DNA of 64,000 bases from Nemertoderma westbladi (Eukaryota > Animalia > Xenacoelomorpha). The notes beneath the pieces were generated by a model. That model did no database searches. It had not been told where the DNA came from and worked only from the letters and a program-made list of their open reading frames with translations. Each line of letters begins with the position of its first letter. The first letter of the stretch is position 1. Shown piece after piece: positions 3,036 through 58,445 of this stretch. The stretch covers positions 1 to 64,000 of the forward strand of contig JAUCBJ010008359.1 of NCBI GenBank assembly GCA_032718475.1, given 5' to 3'. Both the position numbers and the translations under genes were made by a program.

Positions 3036-4277
3036 ATTTGATAATATACTGTGTAACAAAATTGTATTGTAACAAAATGTAACATATTGTATAATATTAT
3101 CATGATTAGTGAGATAGATGTGCAGGATGTTCTAGCTTTACACAGTAGGCCTACTGAACTAGCCTACTTCACGACTTCAGTTTCACATTGTGCAGTAGCC
3201 TACACTGAAGTACAGTAGTGGCCTACAGTAGATTAGATGCAGAAAATTCATAAACTGCAGTGAAATTGAGATGCATCCAATCGAGTAGTCCTGGTTAAAT
3301 ACTGTCAATCATTCAACTTTTATTCAGTTTGAATATATTTCTCCCAAATTTCCTATAAACTTTATCCAAAGTCTGTTTATTAAACAGAAGAAAACACCAG
3401 CGCTTGTATGCCCGACTGTATATATAGGCCTACCTATTTACCATAACGTGGAGGAATCCAACAGGTGTTTGATTGGTTTTGCATGCCTCCTCATGTGGAG
3501 ATTAATTGATGGTAATTTTCATAAATAATAATTTAGTTGTGAATTTCTGCATATTTAAAATGCATTAATTTATACACCCACGTAAAATGTTTATAACTTG
3601 AGATTTTGTCGGTCGAAGGGCAGTCCATCTCTAATTTATTAACTTAATCTATATACTGTACAGTCCCTATCTCATTCTGAATATTATTTCTCAAACTGGG
3701 TATCATTTCTCAAACCTTTTACTAATGATAGTCAACGGAAAATATCAGTAGGTAAGACTGGGGTAAGAGTTGAGAAATCAGAAAGATGCAGCCAGCTCAA
3801 TCTAACTCAAACTAGAGTCTGGCGCCATGGTTTGAGTTAGGTTGACATCCAACTGTGCCATACTCAGCATTACCCTTCCTGTACGGGATGGATAATTACT
3901 CTGGTTGAGTGAGGCACCACATTGGGATGGGGAAGGGGCCTCTGTCTGTTGCTTGGGCTCTTGAGTTAATTACATAGGGTTGAATTACATAAGCTGGAAC
4001 TTGCGTGTGTCTCATAAAAGACATGTCAATCACGCAGTTCCTTTGTGGGCTCTACTAAATGTATGTTGTTAACTAAACCACACTGGCTCGGTCTGTTTGT
4101 AGAGAAAGTTTTAATTCTGGGAATATTGTTGTGGGAAATCGGTGCTCTGTTGTCTGTCTGTTTGATGTCAATTGGTGCCTTACAAGACATATCAGTTTAA
4201 AAATCTAATGGTTAAATAACAATTATTAGTGCATATGGGACCTCGGATTCCCCGTACTTAGTTCTAATTTAAGCCTC

Positions 4278-4540
4278 ATGCGAATTTAGTTCCAATGGAA
4301 ACTAATTTAGTTCCAATTTAGGCGAACTTAGTTCCAATAACTGGAGAAAAACTAAAACGAATTTAGTTCCATTGGATGCGAATTTAGTTCCAATGGATGC
4401 GAATTTAGTTCCAATGGATGCGAATTTAGTTCCAATGGATGCGAACTTAGTTCCAATGGATGCGAACTTAGTTCCAATGCATGCGAATTTATTTCCAATG
4501 GATGCGAATTTAGTTCCAATGGAAGCGAATTTAGTTCCAA
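4278..4540. repeat. 21-bp minisatellite, unit GCGAATTTAGTTCCAATGGAT
   Basis: About 9 near-perfect copies at 4357-4540 plus degenerate copies upstream. It explains the three repetitive ORFs called here. Confidence 0.95.
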
Positions 4541-6194
4541 AGGGGCGAGCCACGTAATTGGCGAAGAATCTGTGACACTATTAAGAGGCTGGTTAAACAA
4601 TAATTATAAATAACTAACCCAAAACGCCCAACCTCCTAACGAAAACAATCTTATCCCAAACAACGCCCAAGCTCATAACCCAAACTACGCCTACATTAAA
4701 GTTAAATATTAAAAACATTAGCGAAATATACGCGACAGTAAAATAAATTTATAAAATTGGTTGGTTATATTATATGGTTATATTTTAATGTAAAATAACG
4801 TTAATATGTTATGAGTCATACATACTTAATAAATGTAATAAAAAAATTAATAAATCTTCAGTTTAATAATTTAGCATATAATTTTTTTATTCTGAAATTT
4901 AAAAATAAATTGAGTCACTGAGTCTGCAACTTAATTCTCACTGTCTACTGGAGTTAATTACACACAAACAAATCAAGTTTAGGGAATGTTATAACAGCAG
5001 GAGACCATCAAACCCGTAGGCAGAGTATAACAGAAGCGAGTGGGCCATTAAACACAGACAGACAGCTTGTTGTATGAATGCTACACAGTGCACAGTGGGT
5101 GGTTATGCGAGTTTGAGTTGGGTTTGAGTAAACCAGACATGGTTTGAGTTAGTAAGAGTGAGGTAAGAGAAAAGGTACCCAGTTTGAGAAACAGTATCTA
5201 GAATGAGATAGGGACTGTAGTCGACTATATATACATTTATACAGTATTAGCGATTACATAATTTCATATCCTACTTTTATAAAAGTATACTCCACTTGTT
5301 CTGCTAGTCCGAGTTAGTGACTAATTATCTTGTAATACTGTAATTACGGTACTGTATGTGAATATGCAGTAGGCCTAGTATAATTGCAGTAGAGAACCAA
5401 ATTTTGGCCCAAAACAGTAACATTTCACCTCCTTGGAGTTCATATTCAAGGTAAATTATTATTATGTATTCATTGAATTAAATTATTGGCAGAGCATCAA
5501 ACATTGTAAGTTTCTCAATGGAGGGATTATACCCCTCCAGTTGTAGGCCTAATGACCTGTAGTTTCTATGAGAAAGACATAAACAATATGCAAGTATAGG
5601 CCCTATATGAAACGCCTATCGTTGCAGTAACTGTATATAGTATATTCATAAATAAAAGGCAATAAATAGGAGTATAAATTGTTACAATATTAAGTATTAT
5701 TTATATACATATTATATATATGTATATATAATAATATAATATTAATATATATAATTATATACATTATTTATATACAGATAATTATTATGCTACTGTATTA
5801 ACTTTTATATTTCATTACATTGAGAGCATTCTGCTGATTTCATTTAACAGATAACTACAGTAGAAAGATCCAGAGAGGAAAGGGTTGTTAATTTATTGCA
5901 TAAGAAATAAATATACTGTAGTATTACTGTATTATTTCAAGTCTTACTTTATTAACACTATGTGAGATTACAATATGCGAGGTGTTTTAAAATCCAATCA
6001 AATATTCCAATATAATAATGGTAATTTACTGTAGGTCTACTACACTACTAGGTCGAGGGAGTTCGGACAGTGTAAATGAGATCCTTCCATGCTTCCCGAT
6101 TCTCCATGCCATAGTTATCGCAATTTCATTTTTCTCAAGTTCAGTATCCCTTTAAAGCTGGTCTATATATGTTATACTGTAGTATAGTAGTATA

Positions 6195-8399: not shown

Positions 8400-9033
8400 T
8401 ATTGTTGCTACTCTCTATCCATGACCCAAGGTATTTGAAGTCGTCAACCTTCCTTCGTTGATTATTATCAATTAATTGTTGTCAATCAAGTTTCCATTAA
8501 CATTAAAAGTGATGAATTCGGTCTTCGTAGTATTTATATGCAATCCAACCTACTCAACATCCCTCCCCACTTTATTCAGTAGGATCTGTGCATATTCTAA
8601 CGTATATTAGAGAGCAGGGCGATGTCATCCGCAAAGTCAGTGTCTGTGACTTTCGTTGCCGGATATTTACTACTTCTGCGTTCTTGTAGTGTGAATCCCA
8701 GATCTTCACACTTTATGGCCGTCCTCGTTGCGTAGTCCAGTACAATTTCAAATAGTAATGACGCCAATATACTGTATCACGTTGCAGTACGCCAGCCAGG
8801 ATTGAGAAAAACACAGTTTCACCATCTGGTGTGGTGAGAGTATCTGAGCTTCTGTTTCACAATATATCAATCCAATGCCAGCGTCGATTACTTCTGGTAT
8901 TCCATAAGCTCTTAGGATTTCAAGCATTTTACCTCTATGGATGGAGTCGAATGCCTTCTTGAAGTCCACAAATGTCAGGACTGTGGGGAGATTCTTTAAT
9001 TTAATTACCCCACTCAGTCTCCGTAGCGCAAGT
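8400..9033 (-). mobile_element. Decayed RTE-like non-LTR retrotransposon RT fragment, 3' part
   Basis: Minus-strand translation gives FVDFKKAFDSIHRGKMLEILRAYGIP, DTDFADDIAL and VDDFKYLGSWI, with frameshifts. It is cut by the LTR element at 9034. Confidence 0.85.
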
Positions 9034-10503
9034 TGTTCGCGCTTTTGAAGACCTTTAGCAGTTTAACCTGCCAAAATTTATATGTCTTTTAGTTAATTAA
9101 AACACCTTTAGCATACGACAATATTTTATGCTAATACACAAAACATTAGCCGAAGTCAGCCCATGCGCGATCATTCACCCGATGGATCTACACCCGGGAG
9201 GCTGAATTCGGATGCTTAAATTTTATTATTGCAGTGTAAGGTTGCAGTGTAAACTTACTGTATTATTCGATAGATCGTTATTAATTAATTTCTGACAGAT
9301 ATTATTGGCTTTCGGGAAATATTAACAGTTCCTTTAGGACGCGGCGCTCTATCTATTTAAACAGAACTAGGACTTATACTAAACGCAACGATACTGCTTA
9401 TGATTAAAGTATAAAGCGCATTCTTTAGGAAATGCTTTGTTACCAATCACAATCATACACACTATTCTGCCGACCGTCAGTAAATTTGATCACACTTAAA
9501 GAGAGCAGCAATTGACTCATGTAGTGTCTGCTAAATAACATTAGATTCAATACACACCACATTGATATAAATCGCAATTGTTATGTATAGCCGGTCTCTC
9601 TAACCTGTAGTGTATCAAGAAAATTGGGAAATTTGGGTGATTTATCCGTATTCTCCAAAGAGCAATATTTCCATCAACAAATAGATACAATTAATAACTG
9701 ACAGTAAAATAACAGTACAAACAATATGATTAATGCAGTTAAATTAAGTGAGTTAGTTAGATTGATTAATTAGTTAAGATTCGTTAGGTAACAGTTTATA
9801 CTTTCGATAATTTAAGCAGTTTTACTAGAGTTCTTCCCAAAAAGCCGGTGTTATGGCGAAAAATGGGAACACAACAACAGAATCATATAAAATCATATGA
9901 CTACTACCACTATACGAGTATACCAAAATACCCTTATTCCCCGAAGCTCCGTTCAACACAGAGGATGAGCATAGAGATAGGAAATTCAGTTCAGTAGCGC
10001 TGGGATAGGTCGAAATCAACGCCTACGCAAATTCTATTGGCCGACACGGACAGCAAGGCTTAGGCAACCTCCCTACGCTGGTTGGCCGATTAAACTGAGC
10101 CCAGATATCTCCACACAGCACATCAGCCAATAAGCTGGTAGCTTGCACTATTTTAGTTATAAATCCCTTTGAGAGTATTCTAGCGACCGGGGGGGAACTG
10201 GCCAGCAAAGGCAAACGTATCAGTTACAGTGTCCGAGTGGATATGGCGCCTTACACAATAGTGTTTGGTGGCGCAGGTTCGAATCCGACTAAAGGCTGTA
10301 GAAATTTCGCACTGTTGTGTCCCTAGGCAAGACACTTTAGACATTAGTGCCTACGTCAACCCAGCGGTATAATGGGAACCTGGCTTTGCTGGGGTAATGA
10401 TAATAAAAAGCGCTTTGAGTATGCCGAGCATAATAAAGCGCTATATAAATAACCAATATTATTATATTATTATTATTATAGTTATCCCACAAAAGCTTTT
10501 ACA
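9034..10503 (-). repeat. 3' LTR, carrying a SINE insertion
   Basis: Near-identical to 21086-22285 apart from scattered SNPs/indels and the insert at 10227-10479. On the element strand it is preceded by the purine-rich GGGAGCGG (PPT-like, 10504-10511). Confidence 0.93.
10227..10479 (+). mobile_element. tRNA-derived SINE inserted in the 3' LTR
   Basis: A-box-like TGTCCGAGTGG, B-box GGTTCGAATCC, CORE-like TGTGTCCCTAGGCAAGACACTT, (ATT)n tail and an AGTTA duplication (10222-10226 / 10480-10484). Absent from the other LTR. Confidence 0.85.
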
Positions 10504-10581
10504 CCGCTCCCAGAAAATGGGATTTAAGTCTATAAAATATACAAAATCACAGTTTCTAAAATATAAAAATACTCTAAACAG

Positions 10582-11577
10582 TTAGTCTTTCTTGCGCGGA
10601 CGGCGTTTACGCAGTTTTTTAAAGCTAGCAAGAGTCCTTTTCTCTTTGGGGCGAGCCACTTTACGAGGAGGGCTATAACTCCTGGGTGAAGGGTGCAATA
10701 TGATTGCATCAGAAGGTATGGGATTGCGATCGGTATATCCGCCGGTCGAAGTACCGGGTTGATTGACATCAACGTCCGGGGAGAGGGGTCTAACGGCTTT
10801 GAGAGCTCGTTTCAAGACAGCCGCTCTTACGGGTCCTTTACGAGTGGTCTGAACGAGGGCCGTGGGTGGACCATAGGCAGTTAGAAACTTCCTTGGTTTA
10901 ATGGTTCTTTCCAGCTCGCGTTCGCGGGCTCTGTACTCGTAAGGCCGTCGATATACTTCCTGTAACTCAGGGTGTGAGTTGACAAATAAGTCTCCATAGG
11001 CCGGATCTTGACGGATAAAGTTTATTAAGTTATACGAATTGATGTCACTCGGATTAATGCTCCTGAGGAATTTGCGTACATATTTGGTTGAAATACATTC
11101 TCCAACGCGCTTCAATAGTTCATAACTTGATAGGCGCGATTTCTGCTCGACGGAGGCAAACAAATAAGGATGGAACGCATAAACTCCTTCGTAAGCGCGT
11201 CCAGGATAATAGCGATGGCGTGAATCACAATGTAAATCAGCGTTCGCTTCCCAAGCTCTGATATAACGTAGTACAATCATTTCATCTACGCTCTCTAAAT
11301 CATGGTTAAAGGGACAATCAAAGCTGGCGTGTCCTTTTAATTGACAATGATGGCATTGAGTCATAAATTGGGGGCAGACAGCAAAAATGTGCAAATTATT
11401 AAGCCGACAATATGCACAATAGATTTCCATCGATGGTTGCTCGTGGAAATAGGAACAAAGATCGTTGGTGTCCATAGACGTAATATGGTCTCTCGATGCG
11501 CACAGCCGACAACGTTGTCTAGAAACATAATTGGCATGGCGATAATCATACGCAGTAAGACACTGGGAACCTTGATA
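10582..11577 (-). CDS. Accessory ORF3: triple CCHC zinc-knuckle protein with basic C-terminal tail
   Basis: The frame is open from the TGA at 11578-11580. Knuckles CRLCASRDH.. (upstream of the first ATG at 11475), CAYCRLNNLHIFAVC and CHHCQLKGHASFDC. Tail KKLRKRRPRKKD. Homologous to 55940-57028. Confidence 0.8.
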   Translation of the reverse strand, partial: YQGSQCLTAYDYRHANYVSRQRCRLCASRDHITSMDTNDLCSYFHEQPSMEIYCAYCRLNNLHIFAVCPQFMTQCHHCQLKGHASFDCPFNHDLESVDEMIVLRYIRAWEANADLHCDSRHRYYPGRAYEGVYAFHPYLFASVEQKSRLSSYELLKRVGECISTKYVRKFLRSINPSDINSYNLINFIRQDPAYGDLFVNSHPELQEVYRRPYEYRARERELERTIKPRKFLTAYGPPTALVQTTRKGPVRAAVLKRALKAVRPLSPDVDVNQPGTSTGGYTDRNPIPSDAIILHPSPRSYSPPRKVARPKEKRTLASFKKLRKRRPRKKD

Positions 11578-12093
11578 TCATTCCAATATGTAGTCGCTAT
11601 CGCTACTCCGAGACGTGGGGGGCTGAATCTCTTCAGATTCTAAACATATGGGTTCGTCTTCCCCTTGTATAGTTGAGGTAGGCGTGGCTGTCTCCTCAAG
11701 TGGACCTATCGTCTGAATTTCCACGACAGAATAACCTGTGGGGATCCGAGGTCTTTGGATAACCGAGGAGTGCAGGTTCATTATACAAATGTCTTTGAAA
11801 ATAGCAAATCCAGCGCTATCTAACTTCTCCGCAGCCGAGTCTCTTAAGCTGAGCTTGGTCAAAGCGCGGTCTTTGAATTGGCTATCCACGTTGCGAAACG
11901 GGGTTAAAAGCCGTCGGAAACATTCAAAGCGGATGAATTTATTATGTTCATCTAGCTTAGCGAGTTTGGTCCCAAGGATTAATGGATGGGCGCGTATAGT
12001 ACGACTGCACACATCGGCTAGCCAACCGGAAAGTGCGGTGTTTTCGAAGATCGTATAGATAGTCTTCCATTTGTTCAAAGCTGTCCGGGACAA
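11578..12093 (-). CDS. Accessory ORF2, unknown function; in frame with ORF3 across a TGA
   Basis: 171-codon ORF with a TTG start only. IYTIFENTALSGWLADVCSRTIRAHPLILG / LLTPF / GFAIFKDI align with the ORF at 55253-55939. Confidence 0.7.
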   Translation of the reverse strand: MSRTALNKWKTIYTIFENTALSGWLADVCSRTIRAHPLILGTKLAKLDEHNKFIRFECFRRLLTPFRNVDSQFKDRALTKLSLRDSAAEKLDSAGFAIFKDICIMNLHSSVIQRPRIPTGYSVVEIQTIGPLEETATPTSTIQGEDEPICLESEEIQPPTSRSSDSDYILE

Positions 12094-12664
12094 CAGGCAG
12101 TGGACGATCTGCGGTAAGATACATCATGGTGAAATAGAGTCGTTTGAGTTCTACCATGGGATCGTGATGTATACCTTGAGGATATCGAGTCTCTAGGTTC
12201 TGTTGACTGGCAATATTGAGATAGGTTTCTCTCAAAAATTCCAAGTAGTCGTTGAAGTTGATACGCTTATCGGGTTCTTCAACGTTTTCTCTGTCAAGTA
12301 GGTTGCGAATAGAGTTCTCGTGTTCTATTCTCGGTTTATCATTACGATTCCGCTGGGCATGATATTTAAATAAAACCATTTCCCTTTCGGTGTCTACATC
12401 ATCAGTATCATGTAAATCGATAGGATGGCCGGTAGTTAAGAAGTCCATATACGTACCATTACGATTCGTATAGCGAGCGGTGAATTTTCTATAGTCCGCT
12501 TCACGCGTAAGTTGTTCCTGGGACATCGGCGGTTCGATATAACGACCATCGTCCTCCGTAATAGTCGGATCGGCTTCACCGCGTATCAAGCTATCCACAA
12601 ACGCTTGTAAAGGTAGAGTATATCGCTCTCTAATACCAAGGTCATCTTCTATCAATTCCGTCAT
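11957..12664 (-). CDS. Accessory ORF1, 235 aa, acidic, unknown function
   Basis: ATG-initiated ORF with coding-like composition. It overlaps ORF2 by 137 nt in another frame. No recognisable motif. Confidence 0.6.
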   Translation of the reverse strand: MTELIEDDLGIRERYTLPLQAFVDSLIRGEADPTITEDDGRYIEPPMSQEQLTREADYRKFTARYTNRNGTYMDFLTTGHPIDLHDTDDVDTEREMVLFKYHAQRNRNDKPRIEHENSIRNLLDRENVEEPDKRINFNDYLEFLRETYLNIASQQNLETRYPQGIHHDPMVELKRLYFTMMYLTADRPLPVVPDSFEQMEDYLYDLRKHRTFRLASRCVQSYYTRPSINPWDQTR

Positions 12665-14292
12665 ATCTGCTATCTGAGTTTATTAATATCAATATGAGTT
12701 AATATTTTAGGCAAGCGGGCGTCGCTGCCTACTAGGCTTTTGCCCCCGGACAGTGGGTTTCTCAGCGCCGATGTACCGCTGTCGCAGTGTTTACGCCAAC
12801 ATGTAGCAACAGCACGACAACGATAACCGGCACAAGTCCCACCACTGTCCGTCCCAAAGGCTTGAATCCACTTGAGGTTATCTCGGTAGAGTTAGGGCTA
12901 TTTTACAATTGCGATTAGCTACTGTAAACACACTTTAGTAGTAACATTCACCTATAAACGCACAAATTCCATACAATCATTACTTACTGCACACATGCAT
13001 GCCATTTGTCCGTTAGTCAGTGTCTTCCAGAATGTCACGTTATTACTATGTATCCTTGGATACCAATAGTGCGTTATGTATACTCTTATGCTACGCAATG
13101 GGGCAAGCTTTTTATTGTTCCTTTTAACTTGCTTCTAATTCTAGCGTGGGTGTTGCCATGGTGACATTATGGAAAACTAGCGGTAGAATTAGGGCAATTC
13201 TCAGGCATACAGATCTGGGATGTTATTTAATAGTAATTCTTTAATTGTCAATATCCTCTTTATGCATGATTTTATAAATTTTATCGGCTATTGACTATAT
13301 GTTGGAGATTCTCGCGCTCTAGTACACTCAATATGAATCTCCGCTCCCATGATCTATTAATTACTGGAATTTTGGGAATGTTATAAATTGCACAAAATGA
13401 CAATTTATGAAATTCATTTGAATATGAATTTAAATTTATTCCCGTGAATTTTATTATTTGATGTTAAATTGATACAAATTTTATTCCAGAGCATATCTGG
13501 GGTGGGGACTTAGGATCCTTAATTCTATAAAATAGTCCTTCTAAGAATATCGGTAAATACTGCGATATCTTAATTGACTAGAAATTTTAAAGGATCGGGA
13601 TTTTACAGATTTTAATAAATATTAAATTAATATTTAGGATGGGCACCGATTTATTCCAGAACTTGTCTGGGGACTTTAACCACTGATTCTAGAATTTGTC
13701 TTTCAAGTATATCGGTGGGTGCCACGATATCTTAATCGACTAGAATTACAGATGGTCAAAAAATTTAACAGATTTATTTGCGATTTACGCTACTGTTAGA
13801 GGGACATCACGCTACTATATGTATTATTTGTTATAAGGTAGAAGAGCAATATCGCACGAAGCAATGTCAGTGTGAAGAGGCAAGTCGTTTCCAAGGTCTA
13901 CCCAGAGCTTGGTTTAGCCGAGACACGAGGATCTGAACTTTGCATTCCTAATACTCTGCCTACCAATAATACTTAAATATAGTAGTGGCTTTATTGTACT
14001 TTAAGAAGTACTGACATGTCATCTTACTATAGTCTCGCATTTATAATATAATACGGACAGTACGGAAAGAGAAAAATAATTATTTCTTGCCGTCGCACTA
14101 AATATATATTATAAGTAATTATGTAATAAACACTAATATATTGCACTAATCTACTAAATAATCTAAATAACATTCCACTAAATAAAATTAAATAAAACGA
14201 TTATAATAAAGTACATAATAATCCATACATAAATATAAAGTAATAATAAAAAAATATAAAATAATATAGTCACACACCCACTCCATATATAA

Positions 14293-17133
14293 TTACGTTA
14301 TGGAGTCCCTAGATCTTTGTCGAATTAGGGAAGTGGTCGTAGGAAGAGTATCTTGCCTTCCATGGTTTCCGGACAGTTTTCGGTCTCTTTCCAGTAAACC
14401 TAAATGACCAGCTGGGCGATTAGGCTGTCGTGTTACTTCCTCCGCTCCCTTGGCCTGTCTAATCTTCGCCGTGGTAAGATGAGGAGGCCATTCATCTTTT
14501 TCTTTACTTAGGGAGTCGGGTCCACTTAACCAGCCGGGAGTATCTATCCGTTCTTGAGGAGTTGCTCCTCTGGAAGCGATGTCGGCTAGATTAATCATCT
14601 CGGGGCGATGTCTCCATTGATCTACATTGGAGTTAATATCGTCATTATCTGAGGAGTATGGTGTTCCCTCAGTTGGATCGTCCACATCACTGCTCTCCAC
14701 TTCCCATTCCTTTACTTGGTATACCTGTTGTTGAGGTAATCTCTCTTTGAGAGTTCTACGGGAAGGGCCAGTGAAGTACCAACCTACTCTAGTTCTTACC
14801 GCATAGGTTTGCAGTGGCTGCGGTTGAGCAGGCCGTTTCTCCAATGTCTCGAGCGCCTCATGCGCGTTTTGGCCGATGAGTATTTGCACTCCAGGATAAT
14901 CTGTCTGGAATCGAGGTATCTTAAGATGTTGGATGCTCTCATCCTCGTCCCAATTATAAAGGTCTGCTTGGGTAGTAGCGAAGTTCTTTATAGCCACCAT
15001 TTTTACTGACCTTATACTTTGTGCTCCTAATTTATCCTGGGGGGTGGACAACTCACCTACATAGTAATCTGCCGTTAGGGTAGATTTCCAAACCTGCATA
15101 ATTCCTGACATATTCAATTTAGTCCGGAACTTGGGTTGTCCAGCAAAGATATCTTCGGCTAGTTCTTGATCGATGAATGTTCCTGTGCTGCCGGAGTCAA
15201 GTAGGGCGTTCACTATGTAACTCTTGTTGAGACCATGAACTCTCACTTGCACTACAGGAAATTCTCTTATTCCTATGTTGGAAGTTGGAACTTTCCAAGA
15301 TGGTTGTTTGTCAAAAGGAGTTGGAGTAAACTCGTCAGTGTCCTTTTCATACGTAAGTGCTCGATACACTGTGGTATTTATTAGATAACAGGATTCGTTG
15401 GCATCGGAGAATTCGTCTGTATAGAATCCTTCCCACTCAGAACCTTGGTCAGTGTCGTTCACATCACTGAATTGGACATGTAGTTCGGGCTCACTTACCT
15501 GACTCGGGTTGTCTCGTTCGAACTCACTGTGTAACAAGATGTGATGTTTCGCGCCACACTTTGCACACTTTACGTCGGAGTAACAGGTTCGCCGTTGGTG
15601 TCCTGATCTGAGGCAATTATAGCATAACCGCTTATTCCACAGGACTGTACGTCTGTCTACAGGGGATTTCTTTAGAAATTCAGCACACGCACTCAAACGG
15701 TGGGGCCCGTCGCACAGCGCACATTTTGGTTTGATGTTACTCACCTTAACTTGGTTAACGTTATGCACTCTCGTTCTTTCTTCGGGCTTTCTTCCGTGAA
15801 TTCTCTTAGGAGACGTTGGAGGAGTTGTTGTTACCTGTTCTCTCCTGTCACTGGTTCGAGACTTGTATTTACTTACGTCTTTATAGGTCTTGTTGTCATA
15901 GTAAGATTTTGCTGTGTCTTTCCCGCTGTCCTCTTCTTGAGAAGCTTGGCTTTCGCCGTCGTCAGTATAACACACTGGTATTATCCTTCTCCTAGAAACG
16001 GGTTTCTCACTTACCTTATTTTCCGATGTTTTCTCTCTGGACTGCCTTATGAGTTGTAATTTTACTTCACTATCTAAGAAGGACATGAGATCAGCCATGG
16101 TAGGACTTCGTCGTTGTTGTTCATTCATGTACAACACTTTCTTGTCCCAGCGTGTACATACTCCACCCTTTGGTAAAGTAGAGACTACGGCTCCAATAAC
16201 CATGGAACTCTGATATTCATGCGACTTACCTAACCAGTCCAGTTGTCTACAGATCTCTTGAATTTCATCGGAAAACTCTATAATCCCGCTACTAAGGAAG
16301 TGTCGGGGGGCTACTAATTTTGCATACAAATACTTAGCTATGTTATCCTTGTTACCATACCTGATGTTTAATGTATCCCAAACTTGTCTTAATCCTTCTG
16401 GATGTCCAATAAACTTTAACGCCATTAACTTGGGAGGTCCTTCCAAGCACTTGATGAGGAATCTAAGTTTCTCTCCGTTAGATAGTACAGAGTTCTGTAT
16501 GCTATCTTTGTAATATTCGTTGAAAGGTAACCATTTCATCTCATCTCCATTGAATTTGACGATCTCTCCCACTTTGACCGCTTGGCGGGCTTCTGTTCTA
16601 GCCATCTGACGCGTAAAGCTTTCTTGGGCCATCGTGTTATTTAATATCGAATTATCGGTATATAAATTTCTCGGATCATTATCAGGTCTATAGGGAATAT
16701 CATTAATAACAGGTCTATAATCACCCTTAATAGGGTTTGCTATAGGAGTTTCAACTTCACTAGCAGTATAGATGCGTGTAGGCTCCACACCTTGCGCATG
16801 TAATCCTTCAGACCTAACAGGTTGACACAATGTTATAGGGGGTATTGGTATGCCCTTTTGGATATTGACTAATTTGTCGCGTTCTAGTGCGATACTTTGC
16901 TGCACCTCTTGCAACTCTGCTCTACCTTCCCTCACTGTTCCCTTAAGTTGGTGGACAGTCTCCTGCATCTGTCCCAGCAGGAGATTCATCCCCCGCCGTC
17001 CCTCTTCCACCCACTCAACCGCCGAAGCGGGAGTCGCCAACATAGTAGCGGGCTGACGCGGGACGACGGGAGACAAATTATTGATTTCTCTCTCTGCTAT
17101 CTGGACAGGGGTATTCTGCATGGACTGTTCCAC
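14293..17133 (-). CDS. BEL/Pao Gag (C-terminal part) plus aspartic protease plus RNase H remnant
   Basis: KFNGDEMKWLPF..Y...I...LSNGEKLRFLIKCLEG (DUF1759-like); CALCDGPHRLSAC / CYNCLRSGHQRRTC / CAKCGAKHHILLH; ALLDSGS; YAVRTRVGW; QWRH..NLADIASRG..WLSGP..WP. No YxDD RT motif. Confidence 0.9.
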   Translation of the reverse strand: MEQSMQNTPVQIAEREINNLSPVVPRQPATMLATPASAVEWVEEGRRGMNLLLGQMQETVHQLKGTVREGRAELQEVQQSIALERDKLVNIQKGIPIPPITLCQPVRSEGLHAQGVEPTRIYTASEVETPIANPIKGDYRPVINDIPYRPDNDPRNLYTDNSILNNTMAQESFTRQMARTEARQAVKVGEIVKFNGDEMKWLPFNEYYKDSIQNSVLSNGEKLRFLIKCLEGPPKLMALKFIGHPEGLRQVWDTLNIRYGNKDNIAKYLYAKLVAPRHFLSSGIIEFSDEIQEICRQLDWLGKSHEYQSSMVIGAVVSTLPKGGVCTRWDKKVLYMNEQQRRSPTMADLMSFLDSEVKLQLIRQSREKTSENKVSEKPVSRRRIIPVCYTDDGESQASQEEDSGKDTAKSYYDNKTYKDVSKYKSRTSDRREQVTTTPPTSPKRIHGRKPEERTRVHNVNQVKVSNIKPKCALCDGPHRLSACAEFLKKSPVDRRTVLWNKRLCYNCLRSGHQRRTCYSDVKCAKCGAKHHILLHSEFERDNPSQVSEPELHVQFSDVNDTDQGSEWEGFYTDEFSDANESCYLINTTVYRALTYEKDTDEFTPTPFDKQPSWKVPTSNIGIREFPVVQVRVHGLNKSYIVNALLDSGSTGTFIDQELAEDIFAGQPKFRTKLNMSGIMQVWKSTLTADYYVGELSTPQDKLGAQSIRSVKMVAIKNFATTQADLYNWDEDESIQHLKIPRFQTDYPGVQILIGQNAHEALETLEKRPAQPQPLQTYAVRTRVGWYFTGPSRRTLKERLPQQQVYQVKEWEVESSDVDDPTEGTPYSSDNDDINSNVDQWRHRPEMINLADIASRGATPQERIDTPGWLSGPDSLSKEKDEWPPHLTTAKIRQAKGAEEVTRQPNRPAGHLGLLERDRKLSGNHGRQDTLPTTTSLIRQRSRDSIT

Positions 17134-18931
17134 CGGGTACAGGCAGTGTAGTACTATGTAAAGGGAATTTAGAGTTAAGCTCTGGAAGTGCAGGGGTCTC
17201 TAGCACAGAAGTGACTTTGGGAACAACAGGCCTAATTATTTCAGGTTCATCGACTATAGTAGGGAGTCTTTTGACCTGGATAAATTGTTCTATGGGTTCT
17301 GCACTACCTAAGTCTGTGCTAGTTAGCTGTCTTTTAACAGCTGGGGGCAAATCAGGCAATTTGCGACGGTAAGATGTTTTTCTACGCCTACTTAGATGAG
17401 ATCTATTTCCTCCGCCTTCAGGATCGGTGGTCTCGCCTTCCTCCGAGGATGTGTATCCCTGGCGCTTGGGAGTAGATTTTCTCATCATCTGCATTTGATT
17501 AGCAGTAAACTGTTTATTTATACTGTCTTGTGTCTCTTGCAGATTTTCCAACTCCAGTTGGGTAGTCTGCTCAGATGCTCTCCTTTCTGCTTCTGCCACT
17601 GCCTTTGCTGCTTTTCTTTCTGCTTCTGCATCTGCCGCCGCTGCCTTTCTTTCTGCTTCTGCATCTGCCGCCGCTGCCTTTCTTTCTACTTCTGCTTCTG
17701 CCATAGCCGCCGCCTTTGCTGCTTTTCTTTCTGCTTCTGCATCTGCCATAGCCGCCGCCTTTTGTTCCTCTATCCTTCTTTTCTTTATTTGTTCTTCTCG
17801 GACTCTAGTGAGACGGAGTTTTTCATCACATTCAGCTTGGTTTGCAGCTAACATTTCGGCATCGATTGAGTCCAATACAAGCTTGGTTCCTTCACTATTA
17901 GGGGAAAGTCCAGACAGCCGTCTCCTCAACTCTTCGTCTCCTAGGAATCGCTGATAGTCGGACAAATAAATGTCGATAGCGTCTCTAGTTCGCGGTTTCT
18001 CGGCGGCCTCTTCGCTTTCCGCTTGAGAAAGGGTGACATCAGTTGGTTCTTCATAGGTTGATCTCTCAGCCAGCTGGGATTTCCACTGGGCCGTTTCCTG
18101 TACTTTGAGATCTACCCGATGTAGCCAAGTTTTGACAGCAACCTGCAGCGACGTGTCCTGTCTTCTTTTGGAAGTTTCCTCAAAGGCTGAGAGGATTAGT
18201 CGTATGCGTAGGGTTCTTTCGCGTATTTGATATAGCAGCTCTTCCTGCTCTTGAGGTCCGTGAGGTTGTCGAAACAGTTGTTCTTCCAATCGATCCAAGG
18301 ATCCGAAGAATCCCTGCACATATCCTGCTGCCGACCTCTTCCAAACAGCTGGATCCATTGTATCTTTAGCCACTCCCATCCTGTGTATATCTTCCCAAGT
18401 AGCCTCGGACAGATCCAACGGAAGTCCGAGTCCGGGAAAGTTCCATTGTGATTCAACAATAGATATCAATTCTTCCCTGGCGTATCCCGCGTAATTATCT
18501 TGGGTCGCTCGCTTATTCTTCGCCCAGTCGGCTTGATGTTCCTCCACCGCAATGAATATAGTAGTTAGCACTGCAGCAGGAAGAGTAAGAAGGGGGTCCG
18601 AGTAGACTGTATCAGCCATCTGCACTCCATGTTCGGGAGTCAGCTCTACAGTATCCGAACTGCTGGAGCTATCGGGTCGCTGGGAAGTAGGTTCTTGACC
18701 AAGATGTTGCTGCGATAGGACAACTGCCTCTTGGTCCCGTTTTACCTGTGCCCGAGTGCCTATGATGGACCTATGGTGGACTAGCCTAGGGTCTGATACT
18801 ACTGGAGGGATGACCTTTTTTACAGTAGGAGGTGAGCCGAACTCCTTTCTTATTCGCTCCACACTCCTATCTGAATCACAGATAGTTGTATCGATCAGAC
18901 TGTCTGACAGGTTTTGCTGAGTGTCAGACAT
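17078..18931 (-). CDS. BEL/Pao Gag N-terminal part, split from the rest by a 1-nt insertion
   Basis: Highly similar to the N-terminal half of the continuous 1221-aa ORF at 48821. CATGCAGAATACC here versus CATGCAAATACC in copy 2 explains the frameshift. Confidence 0.88.
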   Translation of the reverse strand: MSDTQQNLSDSLIDTTICDSDRSVERIRKEFGSPPTVKKVIPPVVSDPRLVHHRSIIGTRAQVKRDQEAVVLSQQHLGQEPTSQRPDSSSSSDTVELTPEHGVQMADTVYSDPLLTLPAAVLTTIFIAVEEHQADWAKNKRATQDNYAGYAREELISIVESQWNFPGLGLPLDLSEATWEDIHRMGVAKDTMDPAVWKRSAAGYVQGFFGSLDRLEEQLFRQPHGPQEQEELLYQIRERTLRIRLILSAFEETSKRRQDTSLQVAVKTWLHRVDLKVQETAQWKSQLAERSTYEEPTDVTLSQAESEEAAEKPRTRDAIDIYLSDYQRFLGDEELRRRLSGLSPNSEGTKLVLDSIDAEMLAANQAECDEKLRLTRVREEQIKKRRIEEQKAAAMADAEAERKAAKAAAMAEAEVERKAAAADAEAERKAAAADAEAERKAAKAVAEAERRASEQTTQLELENLQETQDSINKQFTANQMQMMRKSTPKRQGYTSSEEGETTDPEGGGNRSHLSRRRKTSYRRKLPDLPPAVKRQLTSTDLGSAEPIEQFIQVKRLPTIVDEPEIIRPVVPKVTSVLETPALPELNSKFPLHSTTLPVPGGTVHAEYPCPDSRERNQ

Positions 18932-21085
18932 GTTTAGCTATACAGTTGAAGGCTTACTGCTATAGTTACAGTTAAAGCAAGTCTAGTAATTCAGTATGAC
19001 CACTGGCCTAGTACCGGTAATTTATTGCAGTATATTAGAATACCGGTATGCACTTATAATATATATAAGTATTGTAAACTAGGTTTGTCACAGAGTACCG
19101 GTATATAAATTTAACACAGATATATATAAATATATAATAGGCCTATCTTGAATACCGGTATACAGCTTACACTTATAGTATATATAAGTATAATTATGAA
19201 CTAGAATTAATTACAGAGTACCGGTATGATTTCAGCTCAAATTTATAGAAATAAATATAATAAGCCTATGGTAAGTACCGGTATGTCAATTATTTTTAGA
19301 ATAATTGAATTCCTGAATATTTTAGGGTTACTTAGTTACTTTAACTTACTTTATTACCGTTATTTAAGCAGTAGTCCAACTGATAGTGAGACCTAGTTGT
19401 TGTATGGCAGGCCTACTATTTATAAATCGTTTGATTTGATTTATAATATTTATATACCCGTTTAAATGGGTTTTTTGTCAATATTTGAAATAAATGTTAT
19501 TATTTCTGGGGGAGTCACTACACAGAAGCTGTGCGCTCTCAGTGAAGTGCTATTTATTTGACACTAAAACTGATAATTCTAATTTACCTAAGTTACTTAA
19601 TACTACAAATTACTTACTATACTGGTGAGATTAATTCTCTAATTAAACACAACAAAATATTACGTACGAAATTTTTAGGGTAATTTTACAGGAAGTCTAC
19701 AAACCAGCCTAACAAAGGGTTAGAATTCTGGTTATTACAACGGACAGGGTACTACGGTATTTGAAATAATAAGTAGTAGTAAATATATTGTACTGTCCAG
19801 ATAGGAAAATACCACCGCCTGACGACCTATAACCGTATCGCTATAGGTACTACGTTATGTATCACGGATTGTTCCTACCCAGAAGCTAATAGAGCTAACG
19901 AATGTGCCTATCAACCACTTTACAACACAAATATACTGCCTACACTAATTACTTCGGAAAGCACTGTACACTAAACCCTAAATTAGGTACAAGTACCGGT
20001 ATAACAAATAATCAGTAGTTAAATATACTTGAACAGTTAAAAGAACCACGGCATCTGCTGGAGTGACCGAAGCACAAAGTCACCAGTCTTGTCCTACGCC
20101 AAGCAGCCCGTGTAGTACCGGGGTTAATTTAACTATAACGGTATGTATAACAAGCACAATTACTGTAGGAATAAACTTGGGGACATGAATGTTGCGAATA
20201 ATCGCATAAACTCTGAATAATAAATATTACGCTACCCGTACAGAATACTCAAACAAAATACAAACTAAACGCTGGCAGACTACTATCAAGCCTAAACAAA
20301 CTACAGTATGTGCAGATTCTGAAACTGTTAGTTAGTATGCGTTCTAGCACGGTAGTACGACTTATTCTTTAAGAGGGGATTGACCTTACCGCATATGGCT
20401 GCCCCAACTTACTAACGGCACTTTATCAGACCAACTCTACACACGCAGCAATCCCTTCAGGCCTAAGAATAGCTAGACAACAATCTAGCCTACAAAATAT
20501 CTGAGTAATAACTATTACGGTACCTGAACAGACCACACAAACAAACACAGGCTAAAACACTGGCAGACTACAATCAAGCCTAAATAAACTACAGTATATG
20601 CAGATTCTGAAACTGTTAGTTAGTATGCGTTCTAACACGGTAGTACGACTTATTCTTTAAGAGGGGATTGACCTTACCGCATATGGCTGCCCCAACTTAC
20701 TAACGGCACTTGATCAGACAAACTCTACACACGCCGTAATCTCTCCAAACTCAACACAGTCAGACAGCAGTTCAGCCTACAATTATTTGAACAATCTGAG
20801 CAGACTTACACGTCTTCAGCTCAATATTAACTTACTAGGAAATAAAACCGACAGAAATAAGTAAGCTCCAAAAGAAACAAGGGGTGTACAGTCCCTAATC
20901 TCTTAAACAGCCTACCGGTATACAATAATCAAAATCGAATAATACTAAATGTACTTGTACAGCAGTACCGGTACCGGTGATGACAGTTAGGCCTACTGAC
21001 CTACAGAAGTACCGGTTCAGTTTTACCAGTCACTACGGTATTTTGCAACCTTATTGCCTACTGCAATAAGATTATAAACTGTTAC

Positions 21086-22285
21086 TGTTCGCGCTTTTGA
21101 AGACCTTTAGCAGTTTAACCTGCCAAAATTTATATGTCTTTTAGTTAATTAAAACACCTTTAGCATACGACAATATTTTATGCTAATACACAAAACATTA
21201 GCCGAAGTCAGCCCATGCGCGATCATTCACCCGATGGATCTACACCCGGGAGGCTGAATTCGGATGCTTAAATTTTATTATTGCAGTGTAAGGTTGCAGT
21301 GTAAACTTACTGTATTATTCGATAGATCGTTAATAATTAATTTCTGACAGATATTATTGGCTTTCGGGAAATATTAACAGTTCCTTTAGGACGTGGCGCT
21401 CTATCTATTTAAACAGAACTAGGACTTATACTAAACGCAACGATACTGCTTATGATTAAAGTATAAAGCGCATTCTTTAGGAAATGCTTTGTTACCAATC
21501 ACAATCATGCACACTATTCTGCCGACCGTCAGTATATTTGATCACACATAAAGAGAGCAGCAATTGACTCATGTAGGGTCTGCTAAATAACATTAGATTC
21601 AATACACACCACATTAATATAAATCGCAATTGTTATGTATAGCCGGTCTCTCTAACCTGTAGTGTATCAAGAAAATTGGGAAATTTGGGTGATTTATCCG
21701 TATTCTCCAAAGAGCAATATTTCCATCAACAAATAGGTACAATTAATAACTGACGGTAAATAACAGTACAAACAATATGATTAATAGTGAGTTAAGATTG
21801 ATTAGTTAAGTTAAGATTCGTGGTAGGTAACAGTTTATACTTTCGATAATTTAAGCAGTTTTACTAGAGTTCTTCCCAAAAAGCCGGTGTTATGGCGAAA
21901 AATGGGAACACAACAACAGAATCATATAAAATCATATGACTACTACCACTATACGAGTATACCAAATACCCTTATTCCCCGAAGCTCCCGTTCAACACAG
22001 AGGATGAGCATAGAGATAGGAAATTCAGTTCAGTAGCGCTGGGATAGGTCGAAATCAACGCCCACGCAAATTCTATTGGCCGACACGGACAGCAAGGCTT
22101 AGGCAACCTCCCTACAGCTGGTTGGCCGATTAAACTGAGCCCAGATATCTCCACACAGCACATCAGCCAATAAGCTGGTAGCTTGCACTATTTTAGTTAT
22201 AAATCCCTTTGAGAGTATTCTAGCGACCGGGGGGGAACTGGCCAGCAAAGGCAAACGTATCAGTTATCCCACAAAAGCTTTTACA
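21086..22285 (-). repeat. 5' LTR, 1200 bp
   Basis: Element strand TGTAAAAGCTTTTG...GCGCGAACA. Matches 9034-10503 and 45389-46646. Confidence 0.95.
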
Positions 22286-22290
22286 CAAGT

Positions 22291-22663: not shown

Positions 22664-25600
22664 CTAAAAGTTCACACGAAGTCATAACATGATGTTGTAA
22701 ATACAATACAGTAGCCCCCCGCACAATAACCCCTCTGACAGTATCCCCAGGAGATGTAGCCCCAAAACAGCAGCCCCCCACACAGTCCCCCCCCCCCCCC
22801 CCGGACAATGGCCCCCGAAGAGTACCCCCCCCCCCCCCCCCCAAGGAGTATTGTTGTAATTTCTGTAGCAGTGATACGTAGTAACCAAATTAATGTTCAT
22901 TTATTTACTATTTTTTATGTAACTGAAATTCTAGAATTTTGAATATCGGTACCTAATTCCATTGACATTAGGTCAAAAATGTATGAATATATTATTGATG
23001 TAGGCTTAAGCATATTTACAGTACATGTGAGCCTATTACAAAGGATCAAAGGACATGTTTTGATTTCTATAAATAAGTTTCTGGAATTTAGTTTCTTAGA
23101 ACCTAATTTTTGCTATACTCTTTGGTATACATGTTTAGACGTAGACCTACAGTTTCATTTTTTTTCATTCATTCATTAATTTTCATTCATTGATTTTAGT
23201 TGATAAATTTATAATATTTTTTGCGTTTAATCTAGATATTAATTGTTATTATTTCGCAAAGCGTTAAAAGCTCTTCAGTTTGTATGTGGTAGGTTTGTAT
23301 GTCCCGGAAGATACTGTCCGGGGGCCTGCAGTCCAAGTACCTGAACTGGTAAAGATTCTCCGACCAAATAATTTCCCATCCAATAATGTACTGGAGGCCT
23401 ATACAATAAGGTACAGTAGAGAATAGCCAAAGACCCGTCCGAGTAATTGACACATATACTGAAGGCCCTAGCTTTAATACTGTAGTACTAGAGCTACATG
23501 CCAGCCACATGCCTCATCTACATTATGGTACTGTATATGTACTGTACAGGCTACTGTCAGTAGGCCCCATCAATTCCATCCATAGGTGCCAATCAATTCA
23601 ATGCGTGGCCACCAAAAATCAATAAGGGTGTGGTCGGACAGTCCTACTCTCTCCTATTGGATGTTCCTTTATTAAATCGGATTGATTTTAATCGGAATAA
23701 AATATTCTGTATAATGACTAATATACAGTACAAGGTCCCACATATATTACTGGGCTGTTCAATACATTTTAGAAAACAGCTACTCACTGTACATATAGTA
23801 CTACTGTAGCCTACAGTTTAAGTAACATTATAATATAAGTTCAGTAACCTACAGTATACTTAATGTGTTTGAGATACTGTACAGTATGTTTGATTCGTTG
23901 TCAAATTAAAAAGATTTAGTTTTTTTATAATTGTGTATAGCTACAGTACTATATGTATTTATTGAATTTATCTACATTATATAGTAACTAACTACTACTG
24001 TATGTACAACAGATACTAGTAAGTAATTATTTAGTTACTGTAGTTAGTTATAGTAAATAGTTTCTGTACAGAACAGTAGTAAGTAATTATTGCTCGAGTA
24101 AATTATATACAAAATGCGCCGTACTGTAGCCTTCTTACTGTAGAAATAATCCTAACTTTTAAAAATGGTGGCGATTGAAGTCTGTCCCTGAAACGAAAAG
24201 AAATACAGTACAGTACAAGGCCATAATAGGCCAACAGATATAAGAATATGTCGTAATATTTTTAAAGGAAAGCTACACCATCACCGCATACAGTAGGCCA
24301 ACCGCAAATAGATTTGCCATGATTTAATACACCTAGAGACCGGCCTCCCATCCCCGAGGCGTTAGTTTAGTTCGCTCGCGGCAACGTAAATTCACAATAA
24401 AACCTAAAAAAAAACCGGAAACCTTGATTCCGGTACACGCCGTTCAACCTTTTTCTCGATTAACCAAATATTCACAATAGGCCTACCACTAATAATGTCG
24501 TCTTTTTTGTTATTTTCGGGTTTTCTAACTACTGTATGCCCAGTCATGGTACGTACTGTAGTACGTAGTCAAGTCAACCCTTCATATGGTTGAAGGGTTC
24601 CAAAATAACAGTTAAAGTAGAAAGTAGAAAAGATCGATCTAAAAGTTCACACGAAGTCATAACATGATGTTGTAAATACAATACAGTAGCCCCCCGCACA
24701 ATAACCCCTCTGACAGTATCCCCAGGAGATGTAGCCCCAAAACAGCAGCCCCCCACACACCCCCCCCCCCCCCCCCGGACAATGGCCCCCGAAGAGTACC
24801 CCCCCCCCCCCCCCAAGGAGTATTGTTGTAATTTCTGTAGCAGTGATACGTAGTAACCAAATTAATGTTCATTTATTTACTATTTTTTATGTAACTGAAA
24901 TTCTAGAATTTTGAATATCGGTACCTAATTCCATTGACATTAGGTCAAAAATGTATGAATATATTATTGATGTAGGCTTAAGCATATTTACAGTACATGT
25001 GAGCCTATTACAAAGGATCAAAGGACATGTTTTGATTTCTATAAATAAGTTTCTGGAATTTAGTTTCTTAGAACCTAATTTTTGCTATACTCTTTGGTAT
25101 ACATGTTTAGACGTAGACCTACAGTTTCATTTTTTTTCATTCATTCATTAATTTTCATTCATTGATTTTAGTTGATAAATTTATAATATTTTTTGCGTTT
25201 AATCTAGATATTAATTGTTATTATTTCGCAAAGCGTTAAAAGCTCTTCAGTTTGTATGTGGTAGGTTTGTATGTCCCGGAAGATACTGTCCGGGGGCCTG
25301 CAGTCCAAGTACCTGAACTGGTAAAGATTCTCCGACCAAATAATTTCCCATCCAATAATGTACTGGAGGCCTATACAATAAGGTACAGTAGAGAATAGCC
25401 AAAGACCCGTCCGAGTAATTGACACATATACTGAAGGCCCTAGCTTTAATACTGTAGTACTAGAGCTACATGCCAGCCACATGCCTCATCTACATTATGG
25501 TACTGTATATGTACTGTACAGGCTACTGTCAGTAGGCCCCATCAATTCCATCCATAGGTGCCAATCAATTCAATGCGTGGCCACCAAAAATCAATAAGGG

Positions 25601-29142: not shown

Positions 29143-29367
29143 CGGGACCACTACTTCCAACAGCACAGTTCATAAACTCATACGTACTCGAAAAACTACT
29201 TATACATGTTATACCCCGTTACCGTTTGATACCGGTAATCACAGTGATAGCGAAAACAACGACCCGTTTTTAGCCCAAAGGATCGGACGGCCAAGAGGTT
29301 CCTCCAATAAAGGAAATATACGGATTCGTACATTCTTAGACGTTTCCCAAGGCAAGCATTATCTGGA

Positions 29368-30030
29368 GAATCCCGCCTCTGTAACCTGCTCCTTTCCCTC
29401 AATTAGTTAAGTGATCGTTTATTGTTTTGGTTAGGAAATCCCGCCTCTGTAACCTGCTCCTTTCCCTGAATCGGTAAAGTGACCATTTATTGTTTTGGTT
29501 AGAAAGGCCCGCCTCTGTAACCTGCTCCTTTCCTTCATTTAGTAAAGTGACTGTTTATTGTTTTGGTTAGAAAATCCCGCCTCTGTAACTTGCTCCTTTT
29601 CCTGAATTGGTAAAGTGACCATTTATTGTTTTGGTTAGAAAGGCCCGACTCTGTAACCTGCTCCTATCCTTCATTTAGTAAAGTGACTGTTTATTGTTTT
29701 GGTTAGAAAATTCCGCCTCTGTAACCTGCTCCTTTCTCTCAATTGGTAATGTTATTGTTAATTGTTTTGGTTTGAAAAGACCATCTATGTAACCTGCTCC
29801 TTTCCTTCATTTGGTAAAGTGATTGTTTATTGTTTTGGTTAGTAAATCCCGCCTCTGTAACCTGCTCCTTTCCCTGATTTGGTAAAGTGACCGTTTATTG
29901 TTTTGGTTAGAAAGGCTAGCCTCTGTAACCTGCTCCTTTCCTTCATTTGGTAAAGTGACTGTTTATGGTTTTGGTTAGAAAATCCGGCCTTAACCTGCTC
30001 CTTTCCATCAATTGGTAATTGTTTTTGGCT
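29368..30030. repeat. About 70-bp minisatellite, 9-10 diverged copies
   Basis: Core TTTATTGTTTTGGTTAG...CCCGCCTCTGTAACCTGCTCCTTT. Related single units occur near 37690-37760 (reverse) and 63465-63525. Confidence 0.9.
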
Positions 30031-30939
30031 ATAAAATGAGTGTTTTGCTACGTCATGTGGTAATCGATTATCGACAACAACCACAAACTATTAAATTTCG
30101 AGTCTTTTACCACAGGCGCATATGGAAATCTATCTCATAGTCTATAAATCATGGAATTTTGAATGTTTTGGCACAGGCATAGTGAAACCAACTGTCCGAC
30201 AGACCAGAAATCAACAAATTTTGAATGTTTTGGCATAGGCATGTTGAAATCAACTATCTGACAGTCCAGAAATCAGCAGTCTGACAGTTTGAAGAAATAC
30301 ATACATAAAAAGTCATTAAAGGGACAACAAAAGTCATTATGCACAATTCGTAAAAAAAGGAGGACAAAAAAGTCAAATAAAAGGACATAAAAAAAATCAC
30401 TGCCCTATATAACTAGCCATAGTATAATTAGAATTGTTCGCTAAGATGGCTTGCAGCTTTTGCTGCGCGAAGGCCCCACTCGTGTTTCTGTTGCATACCA
30501 ACCTTACAGTATACACAAAGAAGAGTAGTACGAACCCATGGTCGCGATGTAATGCCAACTTAAATGGTCTACAGTATAACAGATTAGGCCTACTGTAAAA
30601 TACTATGATTTAATTAATATGAAATATTACAGTTAAAAACATTGATCATAAAATTTTGTTCATAAAGTTTTAGTAGTTTTTATTCCTTAAATTTTTATTG
30701 TTACTTACTGTAGGCCCTACTGTATATAATACTGTAGTAATAATTAATTAGTAACTACTTATTAATTAACAACCATCATAAGATTATTCATTTGAATGTA
30801 TTCATACTGTATGTATGTATGTATTATACAGTATATTCCCATATTAATAATTAATTTATTTAATACTCTATCATACTGTATTTATTTACAGTATAAGGGT
30901 AAATTTTTTTAGATAAACTTAATTTTACCCTAATTCTAG

Positions 30940-52486: not shown

Positions 52487-52649
52487 CTTAGCTTAGCTTA
52501 GCTTAGCTTAGCTTAGCTTAGCTTAGCTTAGCTTAGCTTAGCTTAGCTTAGCTTAGCTTAGCTTAGCTTAGCTTAGCTTAGCTTAGCTTAGCTTAGCTTA
52601 GCTTAGCTTAGCTTAGCTTAGCTTAGCTTAGCTTAGCTTAGCTTAGCTT
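52481..52649 (+). repeat. (GCTTA)n array, about 34 units
   Basis: Perfect pentamer array. Confidence 0.98.
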
Positions 52650-55230: not shown

Positions 55231-55252
55231 AAAGCACCCCCCAACCCCCACT

Positions 55253-58313: not shown

Positions 58314-58445
58314 GTAGCTATTCGTTGTAATGGTGGGCTAAGGTACCGGTAGGCGCGGCGGGCGCACCGGGGGGTAGCGACGAAGGGAGTGCGGAGGATT
58401 CAAAATGGGCAATGCTGGCGGGGGGTCACCGTTGCGGCCGGGGGT

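Follow-up and report, generated by a model that had tools for sequence, protein, structure and literature searches.

What is encoded by the three open reading frames (ORFs) that occupy the position of an envelope (env) gene in a BEL/Pao long terminal repeat (LTR) retrotransposon of Nemertoderma westbladi (Xenacoelomorpha)? The retrotransposon (element 1) lies in the 64,000-nucleotide stretch of DNA analyzed here, referred to as the window (GenBank assembly GCA_032718475.1, contig JAUCBJ010008359.1, positions 1 to 64,000 of the forward strand). Between its BEL pol remnant (14491–14625) and its 3′ LTR, which starts at 10503, three stop-to-stop ORFs are found on the minus strand: C (11957–12679), B (11578–12123), and A (10582–11577). 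The original prediction, made from the letters of the window alone, described them as a multi-gene cassette with a diverged counterpart further along the window (cassette 2). The ORFs and their position are borne out, but not their status as separate genes. They belong to a real, selected family of BEL/Pao accessory genes, broken in the window, which has an unclassified triple-knuckle domain and likely an exonuclease domain. The fuller interpretation, that they are the broken remains of one gene combining a DEDDy exonuclease with a triple zinc knuckle and trimming RNA against small-RNA silencing, is the one we favor, with a little more confidence than doubt.

ORFs B and A form a single frame split by one stop codon (11578–11580). 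Neither has a usable start codon, the first Met lying inside conserved parts in both cases. Contigs from four public runs (X1, X3, X4, X5) reveal a very large repeat family around the ORFs, with 47,090 X1 contigs over 5.1 kb (contig depth does not equal copy number). Run X4 is RNA by guess only, and no statement on expression is drawn from it. At the stop codon, a different letter makes up 37,741 of the X1 depth of 38,204 and the whole depth in X3, X4, and X5. Read-through of this stop, or splicing around it, was rejected because other copies lack it. At 12059–12062, where frame C gives way to frame B, X1 and X3 contigs diverge into extra sequence on both sides. The element 1 copy has lost a piece here, because contigs of other copies continue into other sequence, and in intact copies ORF C is probably joined to ORF B. 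We infer that one gene, running from the Met at 12664 to 10582, underlies C, B, and A. Its parts, in coding direction, are:

12059–12664, minus strand: ORF C from its first Met (12664) to the junction, the probable 5′ part of the accessory gene (marginal likeness to the N-terminus of the relatives described below)
12059–12062, minus strand: deletion junction from frame C to frame B (loose contig ends on both sides, runs X1 and X3)
11581–12060, minus strand: ORF B, with a motif likely equivalent to ExoIII (Y-x3-E), a helical extension, and an acidic linker (homology to cassette 2, 0 of 500 shuffles)
11578–11580, minus strand: in-frame stop, nearly private to the element 1 copy (contig depth in four runs)
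11314–11511, minus strand: triple zinc knuckle, three of CCHC type (independent knuckle profile)
10582–11313, minus strand: conserved helical domain (W-E-x2-A-D-x7-R...G-x-Y/F) and basic low-complexity tail (invariant columns in alignments)

Six of the nine differences listed among copies of ORF C fall on third codon positions. A skip of 11663–12302 in run X5 was considered as an intron and rejected, being a DNA deletion. Word-based protein searches found no match to the read-through B+A protein at 282–898 amino acids, and none across the C/B junction at 73–235 amino acids. Structure prediction for the window protein was unusable (predicted local distance difference test score 35.7).

The second copy of the gene lies on the opposite strand:

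55280–57028, plus strand: second family member, 5′-truncated, in one frame with stops at 55937–55939 and 56321–56323 and knuckles at 55958–56131

The claimed homology of the two cassettes at the protein but not the DNA level held up. Cassette 2 matches B+A with a tblastn E of 2e-14 and 23–27% identity (match range 55142–57028), and 0 of 500 shuffles reach the observed score for the pre-knuckle part, the knuckles, or the post-knuckle part, each taken alone. The best DNA match between the cassettes is 17 nucleotides. ORF C has no detectable counterpart at cassette 2 (126 of 500 shuffles reach its score). The first stop (55937–55939) is not shared by contigs of X1, X3, and X4. At 55280 the cassette is truncated by a different, more abundant repeat, so the ATG at 55253 does not belong to it. 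This repeat (54760–55273), which abuts the cassette, is very abundant and GC-richer and has internal sub-repeats. Cassette 2 is the same gene in a second repeat family, only putatively of BEL type.

Relatives beyond the window place the gene in BEL/Pao. A two-sequence profile searched against 1.84 billion representative proteins gave 11 matches, four of which have the three knuckles and the helical domain in common, the C, H, E, A-D, R, and G columns being invariant. P0004, P0007, P0008, P0009, P0011, P0012, and P0013 were excluded because they match through knuckles alone or through repeats. Seven further relatives came from a second search, with P0024 (15% coverage) kept outside the analysis, and a metagenome scan yielded 11 loci (L001–L011). 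As the original prediction would have it, the gene lies behind an intact BEL pol: in 9 of the 11 loci it is on the same strand, downstream of an ORF with a Pao Peptidase_A17 match over cut-off and reverse transcriptase and integrase-side matches, and it starts 433–611 bases after pol in seven of the eight loci measured. The contig of L007 begins inside the gene, followed by a DUF1759 BEL gag, and L008 is a fragment devoid of Pfam matches. The loci are 47–100% identical to one query, have a GC content near 0.6, and may derive from one or few hosts. They contrast with the window, where element GC is about 0.45 and protein identity to the loci is below 30%. A knuckle profile of 15 relatives, built with the window sequences excluded, scores 60.0 bits at element 1 and 47.4 bits at cassette 2, with no other passing match in the window. 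No relatives were found in viral contigs or prokaryote genomes, P0015 has none among the metagenome contigs, and a phage tblastn search returned chance-level rows only.

The accessory gene is under purifying selection in these relatives. Ratios of nonsynonymous to synonymous substitution (dN/dS; Nei–Gojobori, 10 of 10 pairs from nine loci), which describe the metagenome loci, are 0.07–0.15 for the N-terminal domain and 0.05–0.21 for the knuckle domain, at dS values mostly of 0.7–1.4. The tail gives 0.14–0.21, except in one pair (L005/L006) at 0.87. The values for the two folded domains are far from the neutral expectation near 1, and with the 9 of 11 loci in position they bear out the proposal of a selected, non-envelope accessory module with its own knuckles in the env position of BEL/Pao. 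In eight of nine loci (L001–L006, L009, L010), a GT-AG intron of 113–168 nucleotides with divergent, AT-richer content interrupts the gene at the same place. In L011 the intron is precisely missing and a protein of 763 residues is encoded without interruption, which would fit reverse transcription of a spliced RNA. This LTR retrotransposon gene contains a spliceosomal intron whose position is conserved and which one lineage has precisely lost.

Each cassette carries three CCHC-type knuckles, which, as originally described, are distinct from those of Gag: the match to the element's own Gag knuckles is weak (8 and 2 of 500 shuffles). The helical domain that follows has no Pfam or PDB match. Judged by its conserved columns, the triple knuckle with this helical domain is an unclassified conserved domain, of interest in its own right. 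The C-terminal tail of ORF A is basic, with 28 Lys and Arg against 7 Asp and Glu over the last 110 residues. In P0003 the knuckle-plus-helical domain occurs twice, behind a degenerate exonuclease-like region. By hydropathy scan, neither a signal peptide nor a transmembrane anchor of an env-like glycoprotein was found, in line with the earlier claim: the maximum over 19 residues is 0.46, 1.24, and 1.41 in the window proteins, and 1.06 in the natural L011 protein. Since hydrophobic stretches of membrane strength are absent from all of these proteins, the accessory gene is not an envelope gene.

The region preceding the knuckles was originally called a novel domain. It is present, but a likelier identity was missed: it is probably the end of a DEDDy-type 3′–5′ exonuclease domain, most clearly seen in the relatives. 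There, the motifs D-x-E (ExoI), G-A-D-V-x-G-D (ExoII), and Y-x3-D (ExoIII) occur in order in all nine loci, and the acidic residues are also present in P0015. The family profile aligns to human EXD2 over about 120 columns (E 1.2; E 1.6) with D-x-E and the second Asp in register, at residues which we take to be catalytic in EXD2. Among the 30 ESM Atlas neighbors of P0015 (residues 1–320), WRN-like exonucleases (PF01612) account for 24, at a score of 0.91. EXD2, Nibbler, Egalitarian, and the exonuclease domain of a polymerase head the Foldseek and VIA fold comparisons, at about 15–22% identity. Weighing against this assignment, no exonuclease profile matches the relatives' N-terminal domain over threshold, and no single line of evidence is significant. 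Since motifs, language model, and fold matches agree, we nevertheless consider an EXD2/WRN/Nibbler-type DEDDy exonuclease fold likely for the relatives.

In the window families, the exonuclease region can be recognized only at its end, and profiles of the relatives' N-terminal domain find no match in the window. The segment of cassette 2 before the acidic linker matches the ExoIII region and helical extension of the relatives (0 of 2000 shuffles; local test, 7 of 2000), and hhalign gives the same register for the ExoIII region (P 0.13). The start of ORF B has no direct match to the relatives (607 of 2000 shuffles) but matches cassette 2 there (0 of 500). The ExoIII place reads Y-x3-E in both window families, the last acidic ligand being Glu instead of Asp. 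ORF C contains a D-G-R-Y-I motif like that at the relatives' N-terminus and, by eye, D-T-E at 12394 and G-I-H-H-D at 12175, all of marginal significance. The exonuclease core either lies in the deleted piece or is degenerate in ORF C. On these sequence comparisons, we think it reasonably likely that the window families carry an exonuclease-derived domain, partly deleted or degenerate.

Element 1 itself is a complete LTR element on the minus strand (9034–22285), flanked by a 5-bp target duplication (22286–22290 and 9029–9033). Its parts are:

21086–22285, minus strand: 5′ LTR (TGT...ACA), 97.2% identical to the 3′ LTR over 1198 columns
14293–18937, minus strand: gag and protease of BEL/Pao type, split over two frames here but in a single frame in element 2
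14491–14625, minus strand: short pol remnant, with weak tblastn matches (E 0.07–0.13) to L004 and L010 pol, in the expected place
12680–14290, minus strand: AT-rich non-coding spacer of about 1.6 kb, common to many copies (GC 0.33–0.36; depth like gag)
9034–10503, minus strand: 3′ LTR, with a short purine-rich stretch ahead of it and a 252-bp insert inside
10229–10480, plus strand: insert found in the 3′ LTR but not in the 5′ LTR, resembling a short interspersed nuclear element (SINE) by eye (B-box-like motif, ATT tail)

Its paired TG...CA LTRs, target duplication, Gag with a DUF1759 match over cut-off (E 4.8e-12) and three knuckles, and aspartyl protease (Asp_protease_2, E 0.006) are those of BEL/Pao. 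Reverse transcriptase, most of RNase H, and integrase are deleted, and the order reverse transcriptase–RNase H–integrase is not seen; the Pfam search with the gag-protease ORF gave no Peptidase_A17, RVT, or integrase match. Element 1 is a dead, non-autonomous BEL/Pao insertion. The ORFs occupy its env position because the LTRs, DUF1759 gag, protease, and pol remnant surround them, with their last stop about 80 bases upstream of the 3′ LTR. At 14435 and 14740, contigs of other copies diverge into different sequence, which suggests relatives with more of pol. The N-terminal extension of Gag is unusually long, with Ala/Glu/Arg-rich repeats of varying copy number, and matches no Pfam family (17078–18937 and, in element 2, 48815–50670). 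No TGG-type tRNA primer-binding site was found directly after the 5′ LTR of element 1 or 2 (21040–21086, 46647–46720); priming may be unusual, or the site displaced. The SINE-like insert gave no match in tRNA and Rfam searches, and a 57-nucleotide relative of it lies at 5735–5791.

It is interesting to consider what such a protein might do for its element. The gene is likely expressed apart from gag-pol. Single-stranded RNA is the predicted ligand of its knuckles and basic tail, and the exonuclease domain would shorten RNA 3′ ends, RNA being the presumed substrate. Such trimming or degradation would blunt silencing of the element by small RNAs of the host. Nibbler and Mut-7 are host enzymes of the DEDDy type that shape small RNAs, and counter-silencing is our first choice for that reason: it is the likeliest single role, held tentatively. 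Mut-7 is also mentioned in the accessible text of the rotifer exonuclease paper discussed below (PMC5408684). Bolder still, and correspondingly doubtful, is an old, widespread BEL/Pao lineage in which a spliced Nibbler/Mut-7/EXD2-like exonuclease-knuckle gene replaces env and acts against the host PIWI-interacting or small interfering RNA pathway.

The same gene and fold could instead serve replication, by trimming 3′ ends of element RNA, primer, or cDNA, or by removing mispaired or untemplated bases for strand transfer. EXD2/WRN-type domains also act on DNA, the knuckles resemble nucleocapsid chaperones, and no obvious tRNA primer site directly adjoins the 5′ LTR in element 1 or 2. Processing of element RNA 3′ ends is proposed in PMC5408684. 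Gag and pol suffice, however, for typical BEL/Pao replication (PMC8742986). The gene also stands apart from pol, and signals for packaging or processing were not identified; a replication role is the less likely choice, though a serious one. Much the same standing belongs to the idea that the exonuclease-like domain is mainly a non-catalytic RNA binder, as in Egalitarian and EXD1, the protein then being an adaptor that exports or transports element RNA, comparable to CERV of Cer1 or Rev of retroviruses. The substitution of Glu for Asp in both window families, the loss of a Glu and the doubled knuckle domain in P0003, the basic tail, and the presence of Egalitarian among the fold rows would all suit an adaptor. 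Genomic RNA must also retain the intron, a problem that CERV solves according to the accessible text of PMC10309623. Catalysis is nevertheless argued for in the branches of the L loci and P0015, because all four acidic motif residues are kept there, in nine of nine loci across synonymous saturation.

A further reading denies the exonuclease altogether, leaving an unrelated zinc-knuckle protein, either a second nucleocapsid or a captured fragment of an Air2/ZCCHC7-like host protein. Every exonuclease score is indeed below significance, and the Atlas places ORF A near Air2/ZCCHC7-like clusters (best 0.85, a lead only). Motifs, Atlas, profile alignment, and two fold comparisons nonetheless point to one nuclease clan, while the resemblance to Gag knuckles is weak and the helical domain matches nothing in Pfam or PDB, making this reading improbable. 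Air2 and ZCCHC7 have four or five knuckles and a Trf4-binding motif; the proteins here have three knuckles only, no match to solved Air2 chains, and Atlas scores of at most 0.85. The second nucleocapsid-like protein suggested earlier is unlikely to be the whole story; the silencing suppressor and the export factor suggested with it are among the readings weighed above. A reading of the ORFs as passenger DNA without selection, or as what is left of an envelope gene, has a negligible claim, for although the window copies are broken and env-position genes are usually glycoproteins (PMC8742986, PMC13524379), it is ruled out for the relatives by dN/dS far below 1, the same position in intact elements of another host, and the absence of any hydrophobic segment.

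The closest described parallel to an RNA-trimming accessory gene is found in bdelloid rotifers, where Rodriguez et al. (2017; PMC5408684) describe DEDDy ORF3s in Juno and Vesta elements and Terminons. In its accessible text, that paper states that such exonucleases had not previously been reported in retrotransposons and finds near-neutral variation within the rotifer genome; the case is repeated in the accessible part of PMC6431247. As described there (PMC5408684), ORF3 shares with the gene studied here a position after pol, a non-envelope product with an RNase D/WRN/Mut-7-like exonuclease and no membrane segment, an altered acidic motif in some members, and a putative function. The rotifer elements belong instead to the Juno and Vesta lineages, not BEL/Pao. 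In the same accessible text, “knuckle” appears in gag and pol passages only, with a Cys-His-Cys motif in two ORFs, and a triple knuckle with helical domain is not described for ORF3s. By analogy the accessory gene may work like the rotifer ORF3 class, a likeness of description and not of aligned sequences.

Among host proteins, the DEDDy domains of EXD2, WRN, Nibbler (Mut-7), and Egalitarian share motif order and spacing and give the best, though weak, profile and fold matches. Unlike these, the domain here is element-borne and joined in one protein with three knuckles and an unclassified helical domain, with the low identity in fold rows noted above. The ICTV (International Committee on Taxonomy of Viruses) profile lists gag, pol, and an env-like gene only for Belpaoviridae (PMC8742986). 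Env-like third genes of this family (Roo F-type, Chuviridae-like glycoproteins; PMC8742986, PMC13524379, and PMC3118150) share strand and pol-to-3′ LTR position with the accessory gene, which differs in having nucleic acid-binding domains and neither a signal or membrane segment nor a fusogen. CERV of Caenorhabditis elegans Cer1 is likewise an LTR-element accessory protein tied to splicing and RNA handling; Cer1, however, is a Gypsy/Ty3 element, and no exonuclease domain is mentioned for CERV in the accessible text of PMC10309623, the likeness being one of description only. The words “exonuclease” and “zinc” do not occur in the accessible text of PMC3118150 and PMC13524379, and no exonuclease or zinc-knuckle third gene for BEL/Pao was found in the literature covered, outside of which lie Repbase, GyDB, most subscription journals, and supplements, where such a gene may be annotated. 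If correct, exonuclease capture would extend beyond rotifers, to a conserved third gene with an enzymatic product that BEL/Pao elements carry in at least two very different hosts. Purifying selection here adds what the rotifer study, in its accessible text (PMC5408684), could not show within its genome. The role of retrotransposon exonucleases, counter-silencing or replication aid, becomes testable in vitro because natural intact proteins exist (L011, P0015).

The surroundings of cassette 2 do not make it a second diverged BEL element, as had been proposed. The neighboring gag (48815–52479) belongs to a close sister of element 1 and breaks off at an (AGCTT)n array, with cassette 2 on the far side, and the DNA beside cassette 2 has no likeness to the element 1 LTR and no pol nearby. 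The two features concerned are:

45389–52479, plus strand: element 2, sister of element 1 (LTR and gag), ending in the (AGCTT)n array (94% identity over 6685 columns)
57029–58445, plus strand: a purine-rich stretch with AT-rich DNA in many copies, following cassette 2, a putative LTR only (depth like the cassette)

Long (AGCTT)n arrays occur at 52480–52650, 58446–58525, and 61534–62210; two precede a 1.27-kb duplicated sequence, and they may be the end of a repeat element or an assembly feature. Reverse transcriptase fragments of the long interspersed nuclear element type lie at 42881–43762 and 8859–8978, one of them adjoining the 3′ end of element 1. Elsewhere, the window contains an ORF of 535 codons, rich in cysteine, that encodes ShK domains and contains an internal repeat (38815–40422), an exon of a major facilitator superfamily transporter (424–1080), a near-identical tandem triplication of 1972 bp (22664–28566), a 68-bp satellite (29304–30278), and a 21-bp minisatellite (4260–4567).
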